Below are positions 33,142 to 43,611 of a DNA stretch of 64,000 nt, one piece after another. The DNA comes from an uncultured Gemmatimonadales bacterium (GTDB lineage: Bacteria; Gemmatimonadota; Gemmatimonadetes; Gemmatimonadales; GWC2-71-9). A model generated the notes under the pieces. That model was given only the letters and a program-made list of their open reading frames with translations. It made no database searches and was not told the DNA's origin. Positions within the stretch are counted from its first letter, which is position 1. Each line of letters opens with the position of its first letter. The stretch lies in NCBI GenBank assembly GCA_963817715.1, contig CAWFPG010000019.1:41484-105483 (forward strand). The letters run 5' to 3'. A program made the position numbers and the translations under genes.

Positions 33142-35387
33142 TTACTCCGGCCTCAGCACCAGGATCTGCTGCTCACGGCTGACTCGCTGGTCGCCGGCCT
33201 CGACGGTCACCATCAGCCGGTAGACGCCACCCTTGAGCTTGCCGAGGCCCAGCGACGCGGCGCACCGGGGTGACCGGACCGGTGGCCTGCCCGTCGGCGC
33301 GTGACGGTGACCTTGTCGCGGTTGCCGGGATCGAGGGGCACGATCGCGAAGGTGGTCCGATACCGGTCGCCAGCGGCGAGCCCGCTCACCTCGTAGTAGA
33401 GCTCCACCGTCTCGCCGGTGTGCCAGGTCCCCAAGGCATTGACGGGGAAGGCGCCGAGCGGTGTGGGCCACCCCGGATGACCTTCGCGGCCGGTCACCAC
33501 GTCGGAGAGGGCCAGCGCCCGGCCGTCGCTCACGGTGATGTTGCGGACCAGGGCATAGGCGCCGTCGGGGCCACCGTCCGCCCCGATCCGGACCGAGAGC
33601 TCCCACCCCCCTGGCGAGAGCGGCAGCTCGAACCAATCGGTGAGCTTGGCGTCGTCGGCCTCGGGCGGTTCGCCGAGGAAGCGGCGCAGGGTGTCGAGGG
33701 TGACGCGCGCGCCATCCGTGGGGCGATAGGCGACGATGTGGAAGCGTGGCTGCCAGAGCACCCGCCCGTCGGCCAGGGTGTCGGCATGGAGCTCGTGGAC
33801 CGGGATCGCGAAGGTGACCAGGGCGCGTCCGTCGTCGTGCGCCCCGGTGCCGAGTGCGAACGAGCGGATCTCGGCGTCCCAGGGCGCGAGGATGTCGGGC
33901 GAATCGGAGTCGGTGTGCCAGGCGAGCTGCGCATCGGCGCGCTGCTGACCGACAGCGTCCTTCACCTCATCGGTGCATGCCGGGGAGACCACCGACGATG
34001 ATGGCATCGCCAGGCGGTTGGCCGCCTCGCGGTACTGGGGCAGGAGCCGCGCCAGGGCCTCCCAGGCCCCCTCGTCGAGCGGGAGGTAGCTGACCATCGT
34101 GGTCGCGGCGTGCTTCCCGAATGGTCCGCTGTCAAATGGCCCGCCGCTGGTGCTGAACGTGACGACCCGCCAACTCCCCTCGATCCAGTAGATCCAGACC
34201 TCGCGGAGCACCGCACCGTTGGCGTCGTGGTCCGGCGGGGTGAGGCGTGCCAGCGGCTCGCCGTGGCGGAGGTAGGTGAAGCCGCGATGATCGAGCAGCG
34301 GCTCGGCGGCACGGAGGTCGCCGTCGAGGGTGGGGGGATGGATCGGCAGCGAGTCGACGAACGGCGTTGCGGAGCGGATGCAATCGGTGCCGCCGGCGAT
34401 GTACCAGAACCTGGTGTAGTTCCTCTTGGTCCAGGGCTTGGGCACACGGTAGTCGCGCATCGCCACCGTCCAGCGGCGGAGCTGCTCCTGCAGGCGCTGG
34501 CCCGGTGGCTGGCCGAGCGAGGCGTCGCGCTCGGCCCAGAATCGCAAGGCCCACTCGTGGACCCGGTGCCGTCCGGCGGCACGATCGAAACTCCGGAGCG
34601 AGTCGGCGTCGAGGATCCAGTCGAAGTCGCTGCGGTAGAGCTCACGGCCGCGCGGCGTGAGCGAATCGAGTCCCGCCCAGTAGTGCCGAGCCGCGATGGC
34701 GGTGTCGCCGATGGTGGCCAGCGAACGCGCCAGCTCCAGATCGATCACCGAACGGTCGGCGCCCAATGTCGCGGCGCGCCGGAAGGCCCGTACCGCCAGC
34801 GAATCGTGCCCAGCGGTCCGCTCGGCGCGTCCCTCGACCAGCAGGGCGTCGGGCAGTGGCGTATCGAGGGCAACCTCGCGCGTGAGGATCCGCTGCATGA
34901 CCGGACGCAGGTCGCGGTCCCCGCCGCGCTCGAGGTAGTGCACCGCGAGGGTCCGTGCGGGCAGGAACGCGGGATCGCGGGCGAGGGCCAGGTCGAGCTG
35001 GCGCCAGAGCGCCTCCTGGTGATCGTCGCCGACCCGCTTGCCGTCGGAGTTGATGACCGGTTCCTCGCCCAGTTCGAGCAGCAGGAAGGTCCGGGCCATC
35101 AGGTAGTGCGGCCAGGGACCATCGTGCCCGGCCGCTTCCTGATCAAAGAGGAAGAGGGCACGCTCGACGTCGCGACGATGGCCGTCGCGGACGTAACTCG
35201 CGAGGTAGCGCAGGCCATCGCGGAGGTGGCTGGGGAGGTCGGCCGTCTCGGCCGGGGCGATGCCGCTGTCGATGGCAACCTCGGCGGCGTCTCGGAGGCG
35301 CTCGTCGGCAGACTGGGCCCGGAGCGAGGGTCCGGGGAGGAGCAGCAGAAGACCAAGGCCACACGAGGCGCGGATGAACCAGGTCAT
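33142..35387 (-). CDS. Secreted GWxTD-like domain protein, paralog 3; apparent frameshifts near 33260-33300
   Basis: Signal peptide (SLRAQS), TPR-like helices, RFWAERD...EQLRRW, LLDHRGFTYLRHGEP, EVWIYW. The Ig-like C-terminus continues in ORF 33142-33636. Confidence 0.8.
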
Positions 35388-35390
35388 CGG

Positions 35391-37724
35391 CTACGGCTCG
35401 GGCTTCCGCGTCACCAGGATCACCTGCTCACGTGTGACCGAGCGGTCGCCCGCCTCGATGGTCACTCGGAGGAAGTAGCGGCCCGGCGCGAGATGTTCCA
35501 GGCCGACCGACTTCCTGGCGGTGGTGACCGATCCCACGGCGCGATCGATGGTGCTCACCTGGATGGCGGGGTGGGCCGCGTCGCTCTCGGGAGCCACCGC
35601 GAGCGTGGTGTGGAATTCGTCGCCGGCGGCGAGTCCACCGACCTGGTACCACAGCTCGACCGCGCCGTCATTGGGCCAGAAGCCCAGCGCGTTGACCGGA
35701 AAGGGGCCGTCGGGTGCCGGCCACCCCGGCTGGTCGCTGCGGCCGGTCACGACGTCGCTGAGTGACAGGCTGTCACTCGAGCCGAGGTCAAGGCTGCGGC
35801 GCAGCGCATAGCTTCCTGCCGTGGTGTCCCCCGGCTGCCTGGCAAGGACCGCCACCTGCCATCGGCCGGGTCCGAGGGGCAGGTCGAACCACCCCGTCAG
35901 GAAGCCGGTCGTCGTGCGCCGGGGAGCGGCGAACGCCCTGGTGGTGTCGATGTCGATGCGCCTGCCGTCGCCGAGTCGATACGCCACCAGGTGGAAGCGG
36001 AGCCGCCAGAGCACTCGCCCATCGTTGAGGGCCCGCGCCGTGAGGTCGGAGGTGGGGACCGCGAAGGTGATCAGGGCGCGTACGGAATCGTCGAGGCCCC
36101 GGCCGATCGCGAAGAACCGGTGCGTCGCACTCCACGGCTCGAGGATCGGCGGGCGCTCGGTATCGCTGTTGATGCCGATCACCGCGTCCTCGCGTTGCTG
36201 GACCACGGCAGTGTGCACGTCGGGCAGGCAGGTGCGCTTCTCGATTCCGCGGTAGTTGGCGATCCGGTTCGCCGCCAGGCGGTAGGCCGGCAGCATCCGC
36301 GCCAGCGCCTGCCACGCCTGGGCGGACTGCCATGGCAGGTAGCTCGACATCGTGGTCGCCGCGTCGTGCCCCAGGGCATCACTGCCGCGGAACTGGAACA
36401 CGCGCCACGCTCCCTCGGCCCAGTAGACCCAGACCTCTACACCGCGCAGCGATTCGTCGAGCCGAGCCCCCTCCTGGCCCGCCACGATTCCCGCGGTGGC
36501 GGCCGCATCGGCCTGGGGGCCGCCCTCCTCGGCTGCCACCGCCGGTGGGACTGCCCGCGCAAACGGTTCGCCATGGCGCAGGTAGATGATGCCCCGGTGG
36601 TCGAGCAGCGCCTCGCTGCTGCGAATGTCCCCGGGCAGGGCGGGGGGAACAACCGGCAGCTGCTGGTAGAACGACGACGCGTTTCCGACGCACTGGTCGC
36701 GGATGTCATCGAACGCGAAATCGACTCGGGTGCGGGCGATTCGCGTCCACGGGTTGTGGACCCGGAACGTGGCAAAGGCATAGACCCAGCGCCGCAGGTG
36801 CTCCACCTCCCGGTGGCCGCTATCCTGAACGGCCGCCGCATCGCGCTGTCCCCAGAAGCGGTGCATCCATCCCGCGACCTCGCTGTCAGGCACGGCATCG
36901 AAGGTCGCCAGCGAGTCGTCGTCGAGGATCCAGCCCAGGTCCTGACGGTAGAGCTGTCGGCCGCGGTCGGTGAGCTCGTCCACCCCCCGCCAGTAGGCCG
37001 CCCGGGCAGCCTCCGGTCGGTCGAGCGCCTCGAGGGTTCTCGCGCGCTCGAGCGCGACCACGGAGCGATCGGCACCGAGCTGGCCGGCGCGGTCGAAGAT
37101 CGCCAGGGCGATCCGGTAGTCTCCCTGGGTCCGCTTGTGCCGACCCCAGGCGACGAGCGCCTCCGGGAGCGGGTCGTGGCGGGAGACCTCGGTCGCAAGC
37201 GCCTCCTGCATGTCGTCGTGGAGCTCGCGATCACCGCCGGCATAGGCAAGATCCGACAGCAGGACACGGACGCGGAGGAAGTCCGGATCGCGGCGGAGGG
37301 CCTCATGGAGATGACGCCACATTGCTGCCAGGTGGCTCTCCCCGAGCCGGCTTCCCTCCGAGTCGAGCAGCGGGGCACCGAGATCGTGCAGCAGCAGGAA
37401 GGCGTGGGCCATCGCGTAGTCGGGCCACGCCCAATCGGGTCGCCTGATACTCGATCGCGCGAAACGGAACAGGGCCCGCTCCAGGGTGCCACGCTTCCCG
37501 TTGCGGAGAAACTGCGCGACTTCGTTCAGGCCAGTCTGCAGATCGCGGGCGACCGGGTCGTCGGCTTCCTGCTGGTTCGCCGTTGTGGCCGTCCCGATGG
37601 CATCATCGAGCTCGGCGAGGAGCCGGGTGTCGGCGGGCGACTGGGCGGCGATGGGAGCCGGGCAGCAGGCCAGCAGCCGTGCCATGAGCACGACCATCGG
37701 CACCAGTCGTCCCCCGGCCATCAC
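35391..37724 (-). CDS. Secreted GWxTD-like domain protein, paralog 2
   Basis: Signal peptide (PIAAQS), RFWGQRD...EHLRRW, LLDHRGIIYLRHGEP, EVWVYW. Confidence 0.82.
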   Translation of the reverse strand: MMAGGRLVPMVVLMARLLACCPAPIAAQSPADTRLLAELDDAIGTATTANQQEADDPVARDLQTGLNEVAQFLRNGKRGTLERALFRFARSSIRRPDWAWPDYAMAHAFLLLHDLGAPLLDSEGSRLGESHLAAMWRHLHEALRRDPDFLRVRVLLSDLAYAGGDRELHDDMQEALATEVSRHDPLPEALVAWGRHKRTQGDYRIALAIFDRAGQLGADRSVVALERARTLEALDRPEAARAAYWRGVDELTDRGRQLYRQDLGWILDDDSLATFDAVPDSEVAGWMHRFWGQRDAAAVQDSGHREVEHLRRWVYAFATFRVHNPWTRIARTRVDFAFDDIRDQCVGNASSFYQQLPVVPPALPGDIRSSEALLDHRGIIYLRHGEPFARAVPPAVAAEEGGPQADAAATAGIVAGQEGARLDESLRGVEVWVYWAEGAWRVFQFRGSDALGHDAATTMSSYLPWQSAQAWQALARMLPAYRLAANRIANYRGIEKRTCLPDVHTAVVQQREDAVIGINSDTERPPILEPWSATHRFFAIGRGLDDSVRALITFAVPTSDLTARALNDGRVLWRLRFHLVAYRLGDGRRIDIDTTRAFAAPRRTTTGFLTGWFDLPLGPGRWQVAVLARQPGDTTAGSYALRRSLDLGSSDSLSLSDVVTGRSDQPGWPAPDGPFPVNALGFWPNDGAVELWYQVGGLAAGDEFHTTLAVAPESDAAHPAIQVSTIDRAVGSVTTARKSVGLEHLAPGRYFLRVTIEAGDRSVTREQVILVTRKPEP

Positions 37725-40201
37725 TGTTCCTTGAGCACCGTGATGGTCCGTTCTCGCGAGGCGCTGGTGCCGTTCGCCGTGACCGTGACGGTCACGGTGT
37801 AGCTGCCGGGATCGAGATCCTTGAGCTGCACCGTGCGGCGGACCGAGGTGACCGGTCCGGCAGCCCGTCCGGTCCAGTCGACCTTCACACCGCGGCCACG
37901 GCGTCCCTGGGGCGACACCTCAAGCGCAGTGCTGTACTCGGCCCCGGCGGCGAGGCCGCGGAGTTCGAACCACAGCTCGAGCTGGCTGTCGCGGGACCAG
38001 GCGTTCCACGGGTTGAGCGGCAAGGCCTCGCCCCCCGCGTTCCAGACTGGCGCCCCCGACTCGCGTCCCATCACGAGGTCGCCGAGGGTGAAGGCGCCGC
38101 TCCCGCCGATGGCGATGTCGCGCTGCCGAGCCATCCCGCCGGTGCCGGCACCGTCCTGCGCGGCGAGCAGGCCCATCTCCCAGTCGCCCGAGGGCAGCGG
38201 GATCTCGAAGGTGCCGCTCAGGTAGGTGCCCTTGTCCAGTGACCGGGTCGCGAAGGTCCGCGTGGTGTCGATGAACCGGTTGGCGCCGGTTGCCGGGTCG
38301 AAGAAGGTGAGCCGGAAGCGGATCGGTACGAGGAGCCGGCCGTCGGGAATGTTGCCTCCGGTGCGCAGGCCGACCGAGGGGATCGCAAACGCCACGAGCG
38401 CCTTGCCGCTGCCGTCGTTGCCGCGGCCCAGCCCGTAGAACTGGCTGTAGAGCACGAACGGCTTCTCGAACGTCGGGGTGTAGGAGTCCTCGGCTGAGGC
38501 CACGGTGGCATTGGCTCGATCGGTCTTGATGAGCTGCTGAATCTCGTCCTGGCACGCACGGGGCTTCGAGAGGGCCGGAGTGAGCAGCATCCGTGCAATA
38601 CCGATGTACGACGGATCGAGGTTGGCCCGGGCGATGTAGAGATCGGGCCGCAGCGGCAGCACGGTGTTCAGCGTGGTCGGGGCCTGCAGCCCGAGCGCCT
38701 CCGATCCGGTGAAGTGCAGCATGCGATACGCGCCGTCGATCCAGTAGAGCCACGACTCGTTCTGGCGGAGCCGCTCGTCCATCAGCTGCTCGGCGCTGAG
38801 GCTCTTGGTGAACACGAAGGCCGAGTCGTGCAGGAAGCGCAGGATCTGGTCGCGTCGCTGCGTACCGGTTGGATCATCGCTCCCCTCGCCCCCGACCGGC
38901 GGTATGAACCAGGACACGTCGGCCGAGGAAAGCGCGGTGAACCCCGGTGCCTCGGATGTTGAAGCGACGTCGCTACGAGTGCCGCTGCTGATGCTCTTCG
39001 CGATCGGTTCGCCGTGGCGCATGTAGATGATCGCGCGATGGTCGAGCATCCGTTCGTCCTTGCGGATATCGCCGGGGTCGTGGGGCTCCTCGGCGATCAG
39101 GTCGTCGAGCGACCAGGCACCGGAGGGAACGCACTGGCCCTGCAGCGAGATGTCGAACTCGGTGCGCTTCATCTCGGTGCGGCGACTCGACGCCGGGATC
39201 CGGTACTCGTGTCGCACCCAGTTCCAGCGGCGGAGATGCTCGGTGAGGCGCTCGCCTGGCGCGCGCAGGTTCTCGGCGTCACGGCGGAGCCAGAAGCGCT
39301 GCATCCATGGGAGCACCGAGTCGCCGGGCAGCGCGTCGAACGCCGTGAGCGAGTCGGCAGTGGTGATCCACCACAGGTCGATATGATGCGCCAGCCGCGC
39401 GGCGGCCGAGGGGTGCACCAGCGACGCCCAGTATGCCGCGCGCGCGGCCACGGTGCGACCGAGGGCGTGGAGGGTCCGGGCGCGCTCGAGCTGGGTGAGC
39501 GCGGTGTCGCCGCCCAGCACCAGGACCGAGTCGAAGCGGGCCAGGGCGGTGGGCATGTCGTCGTCGGTGCGGGCGATCCGCCCCTCGACCAGCACGGCAC
39601 GCCAGTCGCTGATCGGCGGCGAGGCGTAGGTGTGCACGGTGCGACGGACCAGGTCGGTCTGGTCGCGATCATCGGTGGCCAGGGCGAGGCGGAGGAAGAG
39701 ATCCCGCGTGGGCACGAAGTCGGCATCGCGGTCAAGCGAGTTGGCGAGGTGACGCCAGATGGCGGAGGCGTTGCTCTCGCCGTCACGGATGCCGTTGCCG
39801 CCCTTGGGGACATACTCGTGCAGCTCGAGCGCGACGAGGGTGCGCGCCAGGCCGAACTCCGGCCACGGCCAGTCGCCCTCCTTCGCTGCCGCCGAGTTGA
39901 ACGCGAACAGCGCCTCGTCGATTTCCATGCGGTTGTCGCGCAGGTCGCCGTGGCGCATGACCCAGTAGGCGCGGCGCAGCTGACCGACCCGCCCCTCACC
40001 GACCTTGGAGGCGGCCTCCAGTCGATCGACCGCCTCGACCGTGGAGGCGGCCTCGACCGAGTCGACCCAGGCGGTGAGGGCGGCCTTGTCGGCGTCGGAC
40101 TGGGCGGCGAGCGACGGCGCGGCGGCCGCCAGCATGACGGCGAGGGCCGCAATCGGGGCCGTCCGCCGCAGGTGGGGGGCTGAGGAGAGCACGTCGCGCA
40201 T
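37721..40201 (-). CDS. Secreted GWxTD-like domain protein, paralog 1
   Basis: Signal peptide (SLAAQS), RFWLRRD...EHLRRW, MLDHRAIIYMRHGEP, ESWLYW. Confidence 0.82.
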   Translation of the reverse strand: MRDVLSSAPHLRRTAPIAALAVMLAAAAPSLAAQSDADKAALTAWVDSVEAASTVEAVDRLEAASKVGEGRVGQLRRAYWVMRHGDLRDNRMEIDEALFAFNSAAAKEGDWPWPEFGLARTLVALELHEYVPKGGNGIRDGESNASAIWRHLANSLDRDADFVPTRDLFLRLALATDDRDQTDLVRRTVHTYASPPISDWRAVLVEGRIARTDDDMPTALARFDSVLVLGGDTALTQLERARTLHALGRTVAARAAYWASLVHPSAAARLAHHIDLWWITTADSLTAFDALPGDSVLPWMQRFWLRRDAENLRAPGERLTEHLRRWNWVRHEYRIPASSRRTEMKRTEFDISLQGQCVPSGAWSLDDLIAEEPHDPGDIRKDERMLDHRAIIYMRHGEPIAKSISSGTRSDVASTSEAPGFTALSSADVSWFIPPVGGEGSDDPTGTQRRDQILRFLHDSAFVFTKSLSAEQLMDERLRQNESWLYWIDGAYRMLHFTGSEALGLQAPTTLNTVLPLRPDLYIARANLDPSYIGIARMLLTPALSKPRACQDEIQQLIKTDRANATVASAEDSYTPTFEKPFVLYSQFYGLGRGNDGSGKALVAFAIPSVGLRTGGNIPDGRLLVPIRFRLTFFDPATGANRFIDTTRTFATRSLDKGTYLSGTFEIPLPSGDWEMGLLAAQDGAGTGGMARQRDIAIGGSGAFTLGDLVMGRESGAPVWNAGGEALPLNPWNAWSRDSQLELWFELRGLAAGAEYSTALEVSPQGRRGRGVKVDWTGRAAGPVTSVRRTVQLKDLDPGSYTVTVTVTANGTSASRERTITVLKEQ

Positions 40202-40384
40202 GGAGCCTCGGGGGAGGGAGGATCCTTCAATTGTGGGGCTGATTGGCACGAATCGCCAGCGGAGGGGACGCGCCAGCGCTGATCGTCGCCACAGGCCGAT
40301 GCAACCCTCTCCGGCGCCGGGTCGTCTACAGCGACGTGCCGACGGGGCACTTCCGGCCCGCCGCCTTCCCGTTCCGGAGGATCC

Positions 40385-41908
40385 GTGTCCATTCGCTCGC
40401 GTGTGCTGCTCGTTGCCCTGGCTCTCGCCCACCCGCTTGGCCTGTCAGGCCAGGCGCCGGTTCCGACCACGACGACCGTGGCGCCGATGCGACCCGGCCT
40501 TGTCGCGATCCGTGACACGGTCGAGGCCTGGATCGCCCGCCGGGAGATCCCGTCGATGGCGATTGTCGTGGCCGAGGGCGACTCGATCATCTGGGACGAG
40601 GGGCTCGGGTATGCGGACCGCGAGGCGGGGGTGGTGACCAACACCAGCTGCACCTACCCGCTGGGATCGTTGGCCAAGGCGCTCAGTGCGACCGTGATGC
40701 TGACGCTGGTCGAGGCGGGCCGGATCGGGCTCGACGACCCGATTGCCCCGGCGCTCGCGCCGCTCTCCCTCCCGGCCGATGCGGGACCGATCGATGGTGT
40801 GACGGTGCGACGGATCCTCAACGCCTCCGCCGGCCTGCCGCACGGCTGGATGTCGTATGATCGCTTCGCCGACTATCCAAGTACGCCTGCCGCGCGCGCC
40901 GCGATGGTGCGCACCATCGCCCCGGTGGTGTTCGCACCGGGGGAGACCTGGGAGTACTCCAACGTGTCGCTGGGAATGGTGCAGTTCGTGGCCGAGGGGC
41001 TGACCGGCGAACGCTACGGCGATCTCGTTCGGCGGGTCCTCTTCCGACCGCTGGGCATGGACTCGAGCTACGCCGACGTGCGGCCCGACCTCTACGATCA
41101 CGTGGTGAGCCTCTACGACGACGATGGCCAGCCGATCAACGGTGGCTTCGCCGCCCCGGTCGGCGGGCTCTTCGCCCACGCCAGCGCCCACGACCTCTAT
41201 CGCTTCGGCCGGATGGTGCTGGGGCGACTGCTCCCCGACCAGCGTCCGGTGCTGTCGGACAGCAGCCGGGCGCTGATGCTCCACTATGCTGGCGGTCCAC
41301 GGAGTCCCTATGCGCTTGGCTGGTGGCGCGGCGACGAGCGGATCGTGGTCGACGGCCAGGTCGGTGGGGCCAACGCCCATCTCAGCATGGTGCCGAGTCA
41401 TGGGGTGGTGACCGTCTGTCTCCTCAACCAGACCTCCAATGGCTACGGGCGTGCCGACCAGATCTGCGACGCGATCACCTCGGTGCTGGTCCCCGAACTG
41501 GCGGGGAACTACGACCACGCCCTGCGCGACTTCCAGGCCACCTTCGCGACGCCCTACGAGGCCGGTGGGGAGCTCACGGGGCAGTGGACCGGCACGATCA
41601 CGACAGTGAACGGTCCGCTGCCGGTGACTCTGACCTTCGCGGCCACCGGTCCGCCGACGATCGCGATCGACGGCGGTGCGCCGCTGGCGCTGACCAACAC
41701 CATCTTCAACAAGGTTGGTCGCTTCAAGGGATCGTTCGAGCGGTACCTCCCCACCCCGGAGAATCGTGACGGACACGACCCCGCGCAGGCGCGGCTCTCG
41801 GTATCGGTGCGCGGCGATCGGGCGGAGGGGTATATCCAGGCGCGGTTCGCCACCGAACGGGGCAACTTCGCGATCCCGCTGTTCGTGCGACTGGCGCGCG
41901 GACCCTGA
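40385..41908 (+). CDS. Secreted serine hydrolase (beta-lactamase/AmpC-like family) with C-terminal extension
   Basis: Signal peptide, SxxK motif (GSLAKA), WEYSN, YALGWW. Confidence 0.85.
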   Translation: MSIRSRVLLVALALAHPLGLSGQAPVPTTTTVAPMRPGLVAIRDTVEAWIARREIPSMAIVVAEGDSIIWDEGLGYADREAGVVTNTSCTYPLGSLAKALSATVMLTLVEAGRIGLDDPIAPALAPLSLPADAGPIDGVTVRRILNASAGLPHGWMSYDRFADYPSTPAARAAMVRTIAPVVFAPGETWEYSNVSLGMVQFVAEGLTGERYGDLVRRVLFRPLGMDSSYADVRPDLYDHVVSLYDDDGQPINGGFAAPVGGLFAHASAHDLYRFGRMVLGRLLPDQRPVLSDSSRALMLHYAGGPRSPYALGWWRGDERIVVDGQVGGANAHLSMVPSHGVVTVCLLNQTSNGYGRADQICDAITSVLVPELAGNYDHALRDFQATFATPYEAGGELTGQWTGTITTVNGPLPVTLTFAATGPPTIAIDGGAPLALTNTIFNKVGRFKGSFERYLPTPENRDGHDPAQARLSVSVRGDRAEGYIQARFATERGNFAIPLFVRLARGP

Positions 41909-41938: not shown

Positions 41939-42664
41939 TTGGCCGGGGTGCCCATCACGTCCCGTTTTCCCGATACCCGCCTCTCCGTCCTGGAAGCGCT
42001 GACCGACGCCGATCCCGAGACGCGTCGGGACGCAGCGGAGCTCGTGGTCCGCGCCTACCGTGGCCCGGTGGTCGATCACTTTCGGTGGCGCTGGTCGCTG
42101 GATGAGGCCGATGCGGAGGATCTGGCCCAGGAGTTCTTCGCAGCGGCCCTGGAGAAGGAGTGGCTGGGGCGGTTCGACCCTGCCCGGGGTCGCTTCCGGA
42201 TCTTCCTGCGAACCTGCGCCCAGCGGTTCGCCGCCAAGCGGCATGCGGCAGACGGCCGCCTGAAGCGAGGCGGCAACGCAGTGATCCTCTCGTTCGATGA
42301 CCTCGGGGAGCAGCCGCATGCAGACGATGTGGGGGCAGAGCAGCGATTCCGCACGGAATGGGTTCGCGCGGTGTTTCAGGCGGCGCTCGATGCATTGCGT
42401 GCCGAGGGAGAGGTGCAGGAACGCACGGTGCATCTCGCGCTGTTCGAGGCGTATGATCTGGCGGAGCACGACGCGGTCAACCGTCCCACCTATGCCGAAC
42501 TCGGGGCGCACCACGACCTGGGGGCATCACAGGTGATCAACCACCTGGCCTGGGCGCGGCGACGGTTCCGGCACCACGTGCTTGGGGTGCTCCGGCGTCT
42601 CGCGGCCAGCGAGGCGGAGTATCGGGAGGATGTGCGCGACCTGCTGGGGATCACGCCGCCGTGA
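41939..42664 (+). CDS. ECF-type sigma factor
   Basis: FPDTRLSVL, DAEDLAQEFF, FDPARGRFRIFL, LKRGG, C-terminal HTH; start TTG 41939 or GTG 41948. Confidence 0.82.
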   Translation: MAGVPITSRFPDTRLSVLEALTDADPETRRDAAELVVRAYRGPVVDHFRWRWSLDEADAEDLAQEFFAAALEKEWLGRFDPARGRFRIFLRTCAQRFAAKRHAADGRLKRGGNAVILSFDDLGEQPHADDVGAEQRFRTEWVRAVFQAALDALRAEGEVQERTVHLALFEAYDLAEHDAVNRPTYAELGAHHDLGASQVINHLAWARRRFRHHVLGVLRRLAASEAEYREDVRDLLGITPP

Positions 42665-43611
42665 GCCGGCTCTCTGACGCTGCGGTCGCGCGGATCAGCA
42701 GCCAGCTCCTGGTCCCGGCGTTGCCACCCCGATATCAGCCGATCACGGTGATCGGTCGCGGGGGAATGGGCGTGGTGTGGCGGGCACACGATCACGAACT
42801 CGATCGCGATGTGGCGGTGAAGGTGCTGGCGGAACACGTCGATGGCCCCGGGCTGGTGGCTCGGTTGCGGCGCGAATCGCGGATCCTCGCGCGACTCGAG
42901 CATCCCGGCGTGGTGGCCGTGCACGACGCCGGAGTGCTCGACGACGGCAGGCCATGGTACGTGATGCGGCTGGTGCGGGGCCAGGGGCTGGACACGGCGG
43001 CGGTTCGACTCACCCGGGGAGACCAGCTACGGGTGATGGCACGACTCGCCGAGACGATCGCGTTCGCCCATGATCGCGGGGTCGTGCACCGCGACCTCAC
43101 CCCGCGCAACATCATGCTCGGTCCGTTCGGCGAGGTGCTGGTCCTCGACTGGGGCGTGGCGCGAGAGAGCGGCCAGCCCGAGCCCGACGGGAGAGCCAGC
43201 ACCCCGGGCGTCGATGACACCATCGTCACCGATCACGGCACGGTGCTGGGGACGCCGGGCTACATGGCACCGGAGCAGGCGGCTGGGCTCCCGGCCGACC
43301 ACCGTAGCGATATCCACGGACTGGGAGCGATCCTGCGCGACCTCCTCGACGCCGGGGGCGACCCCGTGCCGCCGGCCCTCGCAGCGATCCGCGACCGCGC
43401 CCTCGCTCCCGATCCGGCCGCGAGGTATCCTGATCCCCTTTCCTTCCGGGATGATCTGGAGCGGTTCCAGGACGGCGAGCCGGTCTCGGCGCATCGCGAA
43501 CGACTCCACGAGCGACTGGGCCGGATCGGTTGGCGGTACCGGACCGCCATCCTGCTGGTGACCGGTTACCTCCTGATGCGCCTGCTGGTCCTGCTCTGGC
43601 GCGGCATCTGA
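42661..43611 (+). CDS. Hanks-type Ser/Thr protein kinase with one C-terminal TM helix
   Basis: GRGGMG, VAVKVL, HRDLTPRN, DWG, GTPGYMAPEQ; GTGA overlap with the ECF stop. Confidence 0.9.
   Translation: MSRLSDAAVARISSQLLVPALPPRYQPITVIGRGGMGVVWRAHDHELDRDVAVKVLAEHVDGPGLVARLRRESRILARLEHPGVVAVHDAGVLDDGRPWYVMRLVRGQGLDTAAVRLTRGDQLRVMARLAETIAFAHDRGVVHRDLTPRNIMLGPFGEVLVLDWGVARESGQPEPDGRASTPGVDDTIVTDHGTVLGTPGYMAPEQAAGLPADHRSDIHGLGAILRDLLDAGGDPVPPALAAIRDRALAPDPAARYPDPLSFRDDLERFQDGEPVSAHRERLHERLGRIGWRYRTAILLVTGYLLMRLLVLLWRGI

Follow-up and report, generated by a model that had tools for sequence, protein, structure and literature searches.

A tandem triplet of exported proteins with a GWxTD-like central domain in an uncultured Gemmatimonadales bacterium

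Genes and domains of the triplet

We analyzed a 64,000-nucleotide (nt) stretch of DNA from an uncultured Gemmatimonadales bacterium (hereafter the window; G + C content approximately 70%), in which positions 33213-40432 are filled by three long open reading frames (ORFs) on the minus strand. These genes, designated g3, g2, and g1 in the order of transcription, encode exported paralogs whose central domain resembles the GWxTD domain (PF20094, TIGR04514). Related loci from other genomes are designated L001-L014.

37721..40201, minus strand: g3, exported paralog of 826 amino acids (aa) from the ATG at 40201 (MRDV start); the frame is open up to 40432
35391..37721, minus strand: g2, exported paralog of 776 aa from the ATG at 37721
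33213..35387, minus strand: g1, exported paralog of 724 aa as assembled, from the ATG at 35387
33142..33300, minus strand: frameshifted 3' end of g1, with two 1-nt insertions relative to the L001 ortholog by three-frame translation and DNA alignment

An alternative GTG start of g2 at 37724 would give 777 aa, and the database copy of g2 (P0004) has 776 aa. The g3/g2 junction reads TGATG, a 1-nt overlap of stop and start codons (4 nt with the GTG start of g2), and the g2/g1 junction reads TAG-ccg-ATG, with a 3-nt gap between stop and start. The ORFs and both junctions agree with the original prediction, made from the sequence alone, of three co-oriented genes for large paralogs with abutting or overlapping ends. 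Judging from these nearly abutting or overlapping starts and stops, the three genes probably form one operon of Sec-exported paralogs, and the junctions would permit translational coupling. Over nearly the full length of the proteins, pairwise identity is 45% for g1/g2, 34% for g2/g3, and 33% for g1/g3.

The original prediction started the region at 33142, but this coordinate belongs to the stop codon of a different frame. Single-base insertions in g1 at ~33290 and ~33245, relative to the intact L001 ortholog, shift the frame twice, so that the assembled frame stops at 33213 and no longer reads the conserved last ~24 residues (GVYRLMVTVEAGDQRVSREQQILVLRPE). The conserved C-terminal strands run on in the other frame to a TAA at 33142-33144, and the tail is intact in L001, L003, and L004. 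Since the out-of-frame tail has kept the coding of the conserved peptide free of stops, either g1 was truncated very recently or the assembly is in error; without the two extra bases, g1 would be an intact gene of the 747-aa type.

The features of the three proteins are as follows; all lie on the minus strand, and a slash marks the cleavage site of the signal peptide.

g3 residues 1-33: signal peptide, LAA/QS
~39401-39994: g3 TPR-like region
38660-39400: g3 GWxTD-like domain (FWLRRD 39278-39295, MLDHRA 39032-39049, ESWLYW 38741-38758)
38099-38473 and 37724-38098: g3 immunoglobulin (Ig)-like domains
g2 residues 1-26: signal peptide, IAA/QS
36963-37556: g2 TPR-like region
36339-36962: g2 GWxTD-like domain (FWGQRD 36840-36857, LLDHRG 36591-36608, EVWVYW 36420-36437)
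36150-36338: g2 helical linker
35775-36149 and 35394-35774: g2 Ig-like domains
g1 residues 1-24: signal peptide, LRA/QS
34086-34649: g1 GWxTD-like domain (FWAERD 34524-34541, LLDHRG 34281-34298, EVWIYW 34185-34202)
33522-33896 and 33216-33521: g1 Ig-like domains, the second one truncated

The A/QS cleavage site is common to the three proteins (40097-40105 in g3, 37638-37646 in g2, and 35310-35318 in g1). The FW motif reads FWAERD in g1, FWGQRD in g2, and FWLRRD in g3; it is accompanied by an LRRW motif (EQLRRW in g1, EHLRRW in g2 and g3), by the stretch from LDHR to GEP (LLDHRGFTYLRHGEP in g1, LLDHRGIIYLRHGEP in g2, and MLDHRAIIYMRHGEP in g3), and by an ExWxYW motif (EVWIYW, EVWVYW, and ESWLYW, respectively). 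At the position of GWxTD, the residues are PLLDH-RG in g1, ALLDH-RG in g2, and RMLDH-RA in g3. The A/QS signal peptides and every motif listed in the original prediction were thus found in all three proteins, except that the motif written there as (L/M)LDHRG holds only in part: LDHR is common to all, but g3 has alanine in place of glycine (MLDHRA). An extra insert of ~60 aa between the GEP motif and the beta-sheet distinguishes g3 and is kept in its orthologs.

Signal peptides ending in A/Q (AQS, AQQ, or AQE) are very common across this genome, and such ends occur also in most other GWxTD-family paralogs, the PorV-like barrel, the receptor-like protein, and the PAP2 protein. With a crude regular expression applied to the same genome, Q followed an AxA-like site in 14.3% of N-terminal matches versus 2.6% of interior matches. 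These ends resemble the 'Q-rule' of Bacteroidetes (N-terminal pyroglutamate), whose original paper makes no mention of Gemmatimonadetes (PMC5837995).

A full-length AlphaFold model, made with g2 and 27 homologs, reached a predicted local distance difference test score (pLDDT) of 86.9 and a predicted template modeling score (pTM) of 0.85, which suggests that g2 is a compact multidomain unit consisting of the following parts.

N-terminus: signal peptide
Residues 30-250: ~13 paired TPR-like helices, pLDDT > 90
Residues 255-462: alpha/beta central domain
Residues 463-525: helical linker
Residues ~534-647 and 659-772: beta-sandwiches

The predicted Ig-like C-terminus was confirmed because AlphaFold models it as two beta-sandwich domains. 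As for the helices, the TPR models of Pfam matched g2 only, and below their cut-offs (TPR_19, 20.2 bits against 25; TPR_14, 17.7 against 23.5), and a sequence-profile search of the PDB returned only weak TPR matches with expectation values (E) of 0.14-0.9.

Relationship to the GWxTD domain

Scanning the full g1-g3 proteins with Pfam and NCBIfam gave nothing above threshold, the only matches being sub-threshold ones to TPR, PKD, and GWxTD (TIGR04514), of which only the last recurred. The curated cut-offs are 28 bits for TIGR04514 and the gathering score for PF20094. Full-length g2 scored 15.6 bits with TIGR04514, at model positions 4-67 only, and full-length g1 and g3 had no TIGR04514 match at E ≤ 1; when the whole genome was scanned with this model, g2 obtained 16.5 bits and g3 15.2 bits, and the central domain of g2 alone obtained 19.3 bits. 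PF20094 matched none of the three. When central-domain segments were scanned alone, 21 of 23 matched TIGR04514 at E ≤ 0.1 and no other family recurred. Furthermore, an hhalign comparison of a profile of the triplet-type central domain (A3) with a profile of canonical 480-495-aa GWxTD proteins, all annotated PF20094 (A4), gave a probability of 97.5% and an E of 7.8e-12 over 122 columns, placing LLDHRG on GWKTDRG; with the full-length profile, the values were 94% and 1.3e-7. In the alignment, ALLDHRGIIYLRHGEP is paired with GWKTDRGRIFVKYGRP, with W changed to L, T to D, and D to H. The central domain of g1-g3 is thus a true but remote homolog of GWxTD. The earlier description of the proteins as GWxTD-like is borne out by the profile comparison and the domain segments, although g1-g3 remain below the curated cut-offs of the GWxTD models themselves.

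The core that g1-g3 share with canonical GWxTD proteins consists of the FWxxRD helices, the xxxxRGxxYxxxGxP turn, and the ExWxY strand. Both groups are exported, both combine this core with Ig-like beta-sandwiches, and a function is known for neither. However, the Ig-like domains precede GWxTD in canonical proteins, whereas the order in g1-g3 is TPR, GWxTD-like, Ig, Ig; the signature is GW-x-T-D in the former and x-L-L-D-H in the latter; and g1-g3, unlike canonical proteins, carry a Cys-bearing insert of ~35-50 aa directly upstream of the LLDH motif. The canonical gene also adjoins genes for TonB-receptor-like or PorV-like barrels, and the triplet genes do not. This different domain order and changed signature, together with scores below the curated cut-offs, uphold the view that the triplet belongs to a distinct subfamily. 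A full-text literature search on GWxTD, PF20094, and TIGR04514 found no relevant paper.

The same genome encodes two canonical GWxTD proteins (C5:308761-310248 and C3:88676-90160) and a graded series of relatives with the motif DDRG or DARG, some of them above the TIGR04514 cut-off. Among these, the paralog C9a scores 46.8 bits with TIGR04514 and is a full-length homolog of g3 (tblastn, E 1e-30). Besides the triplet, this genome has eight further relatives, seven with DD and one with DA at the signature. Three of them form a second, independent tandem triplet of the same architecture on another contig (C9:80994-87780), where the GWxTD position is taken by DDRG or DARG. Two of these three proteins exceed the TIGR04514 cut-off by themselves; the remaining one reaches it only if neighboring in-frame matches are added. 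The wider DD-RG branch of Gemmatimonadota, which includes the C9 triplet, has the domain order, length, A/Q signal peptide, and tandem layout of g1-g3 and is homologous to them over the full length (26-28% identity, E down to 1e-30), but it keeps the Asp (xxDDRG), mostly lacks the Cys insert, and includes members that pass TIGR04514. Public records call its members hypothetical or TPR repeat proteins. Around the C9 triplet, the genes look like those for a ribonucleotide reductase, a gamma-carbonic-anhydrase-like protein, a PP2C-type phosphatase (divergently upstream, 87838-89052), MurQ, and gamma-glutamyltranspeptidase; no envelope partner was present in this neighborhood, which was read by eye with no family search.

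A word-based database search with g2 returned 45 proteins, and the few with a source name were Gemmatimonadales proteins from metagenome-assembled genomes (MAGs), described as hypothetical or TPR repeat proteins. A hidden Markov model (HMM) scan of 1.84 billion cluster representatives matched 3024 of them (50%-identity clusters) at E ≤ 1e-3 and 642 at E ≤ 1e-30. At the latter threshold, 53 of 151 genomes sampled across the phylum had a match, all 53 belonging to the family of the window's own genome (f1) or to its sister family (f3), whereas family f2 had none. In the same genus, all 24 sampled genomes had several matches (4-22 matched segments each). Among the best 144 family representatives, the two residues before R-[GAS] were DD in 73, DH in 50, DQ in seven, and DN in three, and the GWxTD motif occurred in none. 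The Cys-bearing insert was present in 69 of 74 DH-type sequences versus 11 of 75 of the DD type. Because of these counts and the co-occurrence of the insert, LLDH is not peculiar to the triplet locus but marks a sizeable clade, with DH and the insert, inside a larger DD-type family. The replacement of GWxTD in all three copies, which the original prediction singled out, is therefore real but not special to the triplet.

The FWxxRD helix, the downstream GxP, and ExWxY are present in g1, g2, and g3, and A3 shows no variation at the D of FWxxRD, at the G and P of GxP, or at W and Y. D295, R312, D375, R377, W432, and Y434 (g2 numbering) do not vary anywhere in the whole superfamily alignment; in the triplet's clade, the same is true of H376 and H384, and C345 and C499 are conserved. 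The invariant residues would fit enzymes in which the GWxTD-like domain is a new-fold catalytic or sugar-binding module acting on an envelope polymer (peptidoglycan, lipopolysaccharide, or exopolysaccharide), with the D-to-H change and the histidine of RHGEP making an altered active or metal site and the three copies differing in substrate specificity. The co-occurrence of DH with the Cys-bearing insert is in line with such enzymes, and so is the new fold of the central domain, whose confident AlphaFold model resembles no PDB structure. Nevertheless, we consider enzymes unlikely: no match to any enzyme family or enzyme fold was obtained in Pfam, NCBIfam, or the PDB, TPR and Ig domains such as those on either side are commonly found in binding proteins, and the last position of GWxTD, less than 90% conserved as D even in canonical proteins and occupied by D, H, Q, or N in the TPR-type family, is unusually variable for a catalytic residue.

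Foldseek with the full-length g2 model against the PDB returned only beta-sandwich and helical (TPR/HEAT-like) repeat proteins with low TM-scores, and no enzyme core was matched. The beta-sandwich matches were transglutaminase (its C-terminal barrels being the likely matched part), RbmA, and arrestin. Judging from domain composition, transglutaminases (factor XIII and TG2) and Vibrio cholerae RbmA resemble the two C-terminal Ig-like domains in fold (E 1e-6 to 1e-4; TM-scores normalized to RbmA ~0.38), but sequence identity is 9-12% and g2 lacks the transglutaminase core. The resemblance is one of a common scaffold fold and carries no information on function. A BamE/SmpA_OmlA-like module was also considered for the RGxxYxxxGxP...W.Y half of the domain and was rejected, as no profile similarity to BamE was detected.

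History and surroundings of the locus

The locus is flanked on one side by a conserved gene for a 376-aa lipoprotein-like protein and a PAP2 gene, and on the other by rpsF-rpsR-DUF2232-rplI. The survey of triplet conservation proposed in the original prediction found g3-g2-g1 in the same order, with 1:1 orthologs, in at least three other MAGs (L001/L008, L003, and L004), where ortholog identity is 63-78% for g3, 53-71% for g2, and 54-82% for g1; coordinates in G021 and G071 suggest three tandem copies as well. At the same syntenic site, L002, L007, and L009-L011 have one copy, and L005 and L006 have one full copy with a ~500-aa relative upstream. Between one and three copies, or more, occupy the locus in different members of the genus.

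A maximum-likelihood tree resolved three orthogroups with a minimum support of 95/93 (100/100 for g3). The g2 group takes in the single-copy genes of L002, L005, and L006, the remaining single-copy genes join the g1 and g2 groups in a polytomy that the tree does not resolve, and g3 is sister to all. The triplet arose by two tandem duplications of a gene lying between PAP2 and rpsF-rpsR-DUF2232-rplI, and a subclade of the genus has retained all three orthogroups. Identity of the insert (g2 residues 321-370) is 71-92% inside orthogroups but drops to 26-40% from one paralog to another, and this divergence, together with the extra insert of g3, fits subfunctionalized copies.

Neutral tandem amplification without division of labor, leaving redundant duplicates that decay and a g1 that is becoming a pseudogene, would account for the two frameshifting insertions and truncated last domain of g1 and for the varying copy number among relatives. 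We regard this as highly improbable, since all three orthogroups are intact in L001, L003, and L004 at a divergence down to ~53% identity, the copies keep conserved features of their own (the ~60-aa extra insert of g3 and the 71-92% conserved inserts), and the out-of-frame tail of g1 has retained its conserved, stop-free coding.

The opposite extreme is an obligate hetero-oligomer, in which g3, g2, and g1 form one periplasmic or envelope complex with the inserts as inter-subunit interfaces. Junctions that permit translational coupling, the fixed order with strict 1:1 orthologs in L001, L003, and L004 (identity down to 53-64%), and inserts conserved within each orthogroup are all compatible with such a complex. 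However, L002, L007, and L009-L011 have only one family gene at this site, and the ancestral protein therefore presumably works alone. Copy number at the locus is not constant within the genus, g1 is frameshifted in the assembly, and the family as a whole tends to form tandem arrays, of which the second, unrelated triplet on C9 is one. The heterotrimeric envelope complex put forward in the original prediction is thus not supported, in view of the single-copy relatives and the g1 lesion, and we judge an obligate hetero-oligomer to be distinctly unlikely.

Upstream of g3 lie a conserved element and the following genes.

40230..40270, minus strand: conserved upstream element, with CGTCCCC at 40264-40270, palindrome-like TGGCGATTCGTGCCA at 40244-40258, and CAGCCCCACAAT at 40230-40241
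40385-41908: beta-lactamase-fold (serine hydrolase) gene, 507 aa with a signal peptide (Beta-lactamase, 162.6 bits)
41939-42664, plus strand: extracytoplasmic function (ECF)-type sigma-like gene (Pfam Sigma70_r2, 27.2 bits)
42661-43611, plus strand: Ser/Thr kinase gene (Pkinase, 100.8 bits)

The element is located 30-70 nt before the g3 start and, by alignment, is common to the g3-type upstream regions of L001, L003, and L004; the consensus of the four genomes is CGTC(C/T)CC, TGGCG-N5-7-CGCCA, and CAGCCCCACAAT. No Rfam family matches it, and a scan for sigma-70 consensus promoters and terminators gave only chance-level results. From its conservation and position, it may be a promoter, operator, or leader.

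The ECF-sigma-like/kinase pair is transcribed divergently and lies directly beside the first family gene in L002, L003, and L004, and it is missing at that position in L001, L007, L009, and L010. The pair may regulate the triplet. In the window, the beta-lactamase-fold gene separates g3 from the pair; since tblastn found no counterpart of this gene in any related locus examined, it looks like a local insertion.

Elsewhere in the genome, the canonical GWxTD gene at C5:308761 closes a four-gene module (C5:300024-310248) that consists, in order, of genes for a CarboxypepD_reg/Plug receptor-like protein, a large protein with a type IX C-terminal domain, a PorV-family barrel (NF033709, 121.6 bits), and the GWxTD protein. 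This gene order is kept in L013 and L014, with orthologs that are 39% and 54% identical. The genome carries SprA and PorV-family genes, the SprA homolog (C5:321648-327761) being 12 kb from the module. Type IX cargo status was rejected for the triplet: TIGR04183 (Por_Secre_tail) found only C5:307255-307473 in the genome at E ≤ 0.01, and nothing in the triplet.

Proposed role and meaning

Our preferred reading, in which we place about as much confidence as doubt, is that g1-g3 are non-enzymatic binding (adaptor) proteins associated with the periplasm or outer membrane and that they make up a diversified set, not one obligate complex. Of the roles offered in the original prediction, the diversified binding set is thus the one that we favor. 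The TPR and Ig domains would supply scaffolding, and the GWxTD-like domain would dock onto an envelope partner, as suggested by canonical GWxTD proteins being encoded in modules with TonB-receptor-like/PorV-like barrels. The insert, which hardly varies inside an orthogroup and yet differs greatly from one paralog to the next, would fit each copy to a partner or ligand of its own, hence a diversified set. In addition to the canonical module beside barrel genes, the family paralog C9e (C9:158085-161678) favors this reading, as it is fused to an N-terminal CarboxypepD_reg domain (PF13620, 50.1 bits). Domains of this type also head Oar/SusC-like outer-membrane receptors.

Several points weigh against binding proteins of this kind. 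In the related loci compared, no partner (envelope) gene is conserved beside the triplet, and the neighbors are housekeeping genes. The link to barrels is seen only for canonical GWxTD genes and would extend to the triplet branch by homology, and the localization of g1-g3 is predicted from signal peptides only. A catalytic or sugar-binding site is an equally conceivable role for the invariant D, R, D, R, W, and Y. Finally, the term 'non-enzymatic' is an argument from absence, because no PDB structure shares the fold of the domain.

A bolder proposal would make the clade with DH and the insert a functionally new offshoot of GWxTD, either an insert-mediated heteromeric periplasmic machine or new-fold enzymes, controlled by the ECF-sigma/kinase pair through the upstream palindrome; we give it little credence. 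The triplet is an ordinary lineage-specific tandem expansion and opens no long-standing question.

For the family, GWxTD is a widespread domain of unknown function, and the curated models miss a large branch of it (~3,000 50%-identity clusters), so that annotation pipelines under-count the family. This TPR-type branch has an architecture of its own and a changed signature, and it occurs in only two Gemmatimonadota families in the sampled genomes. Its central domain, with a confident model and no PDB relative, is a reasonable target for structure determination, and the orthogroup-specific insert and the contrast with canonical genes beside TonB-receptor-like/PorV-like barrels may serve as guides to the function of GWxTD.

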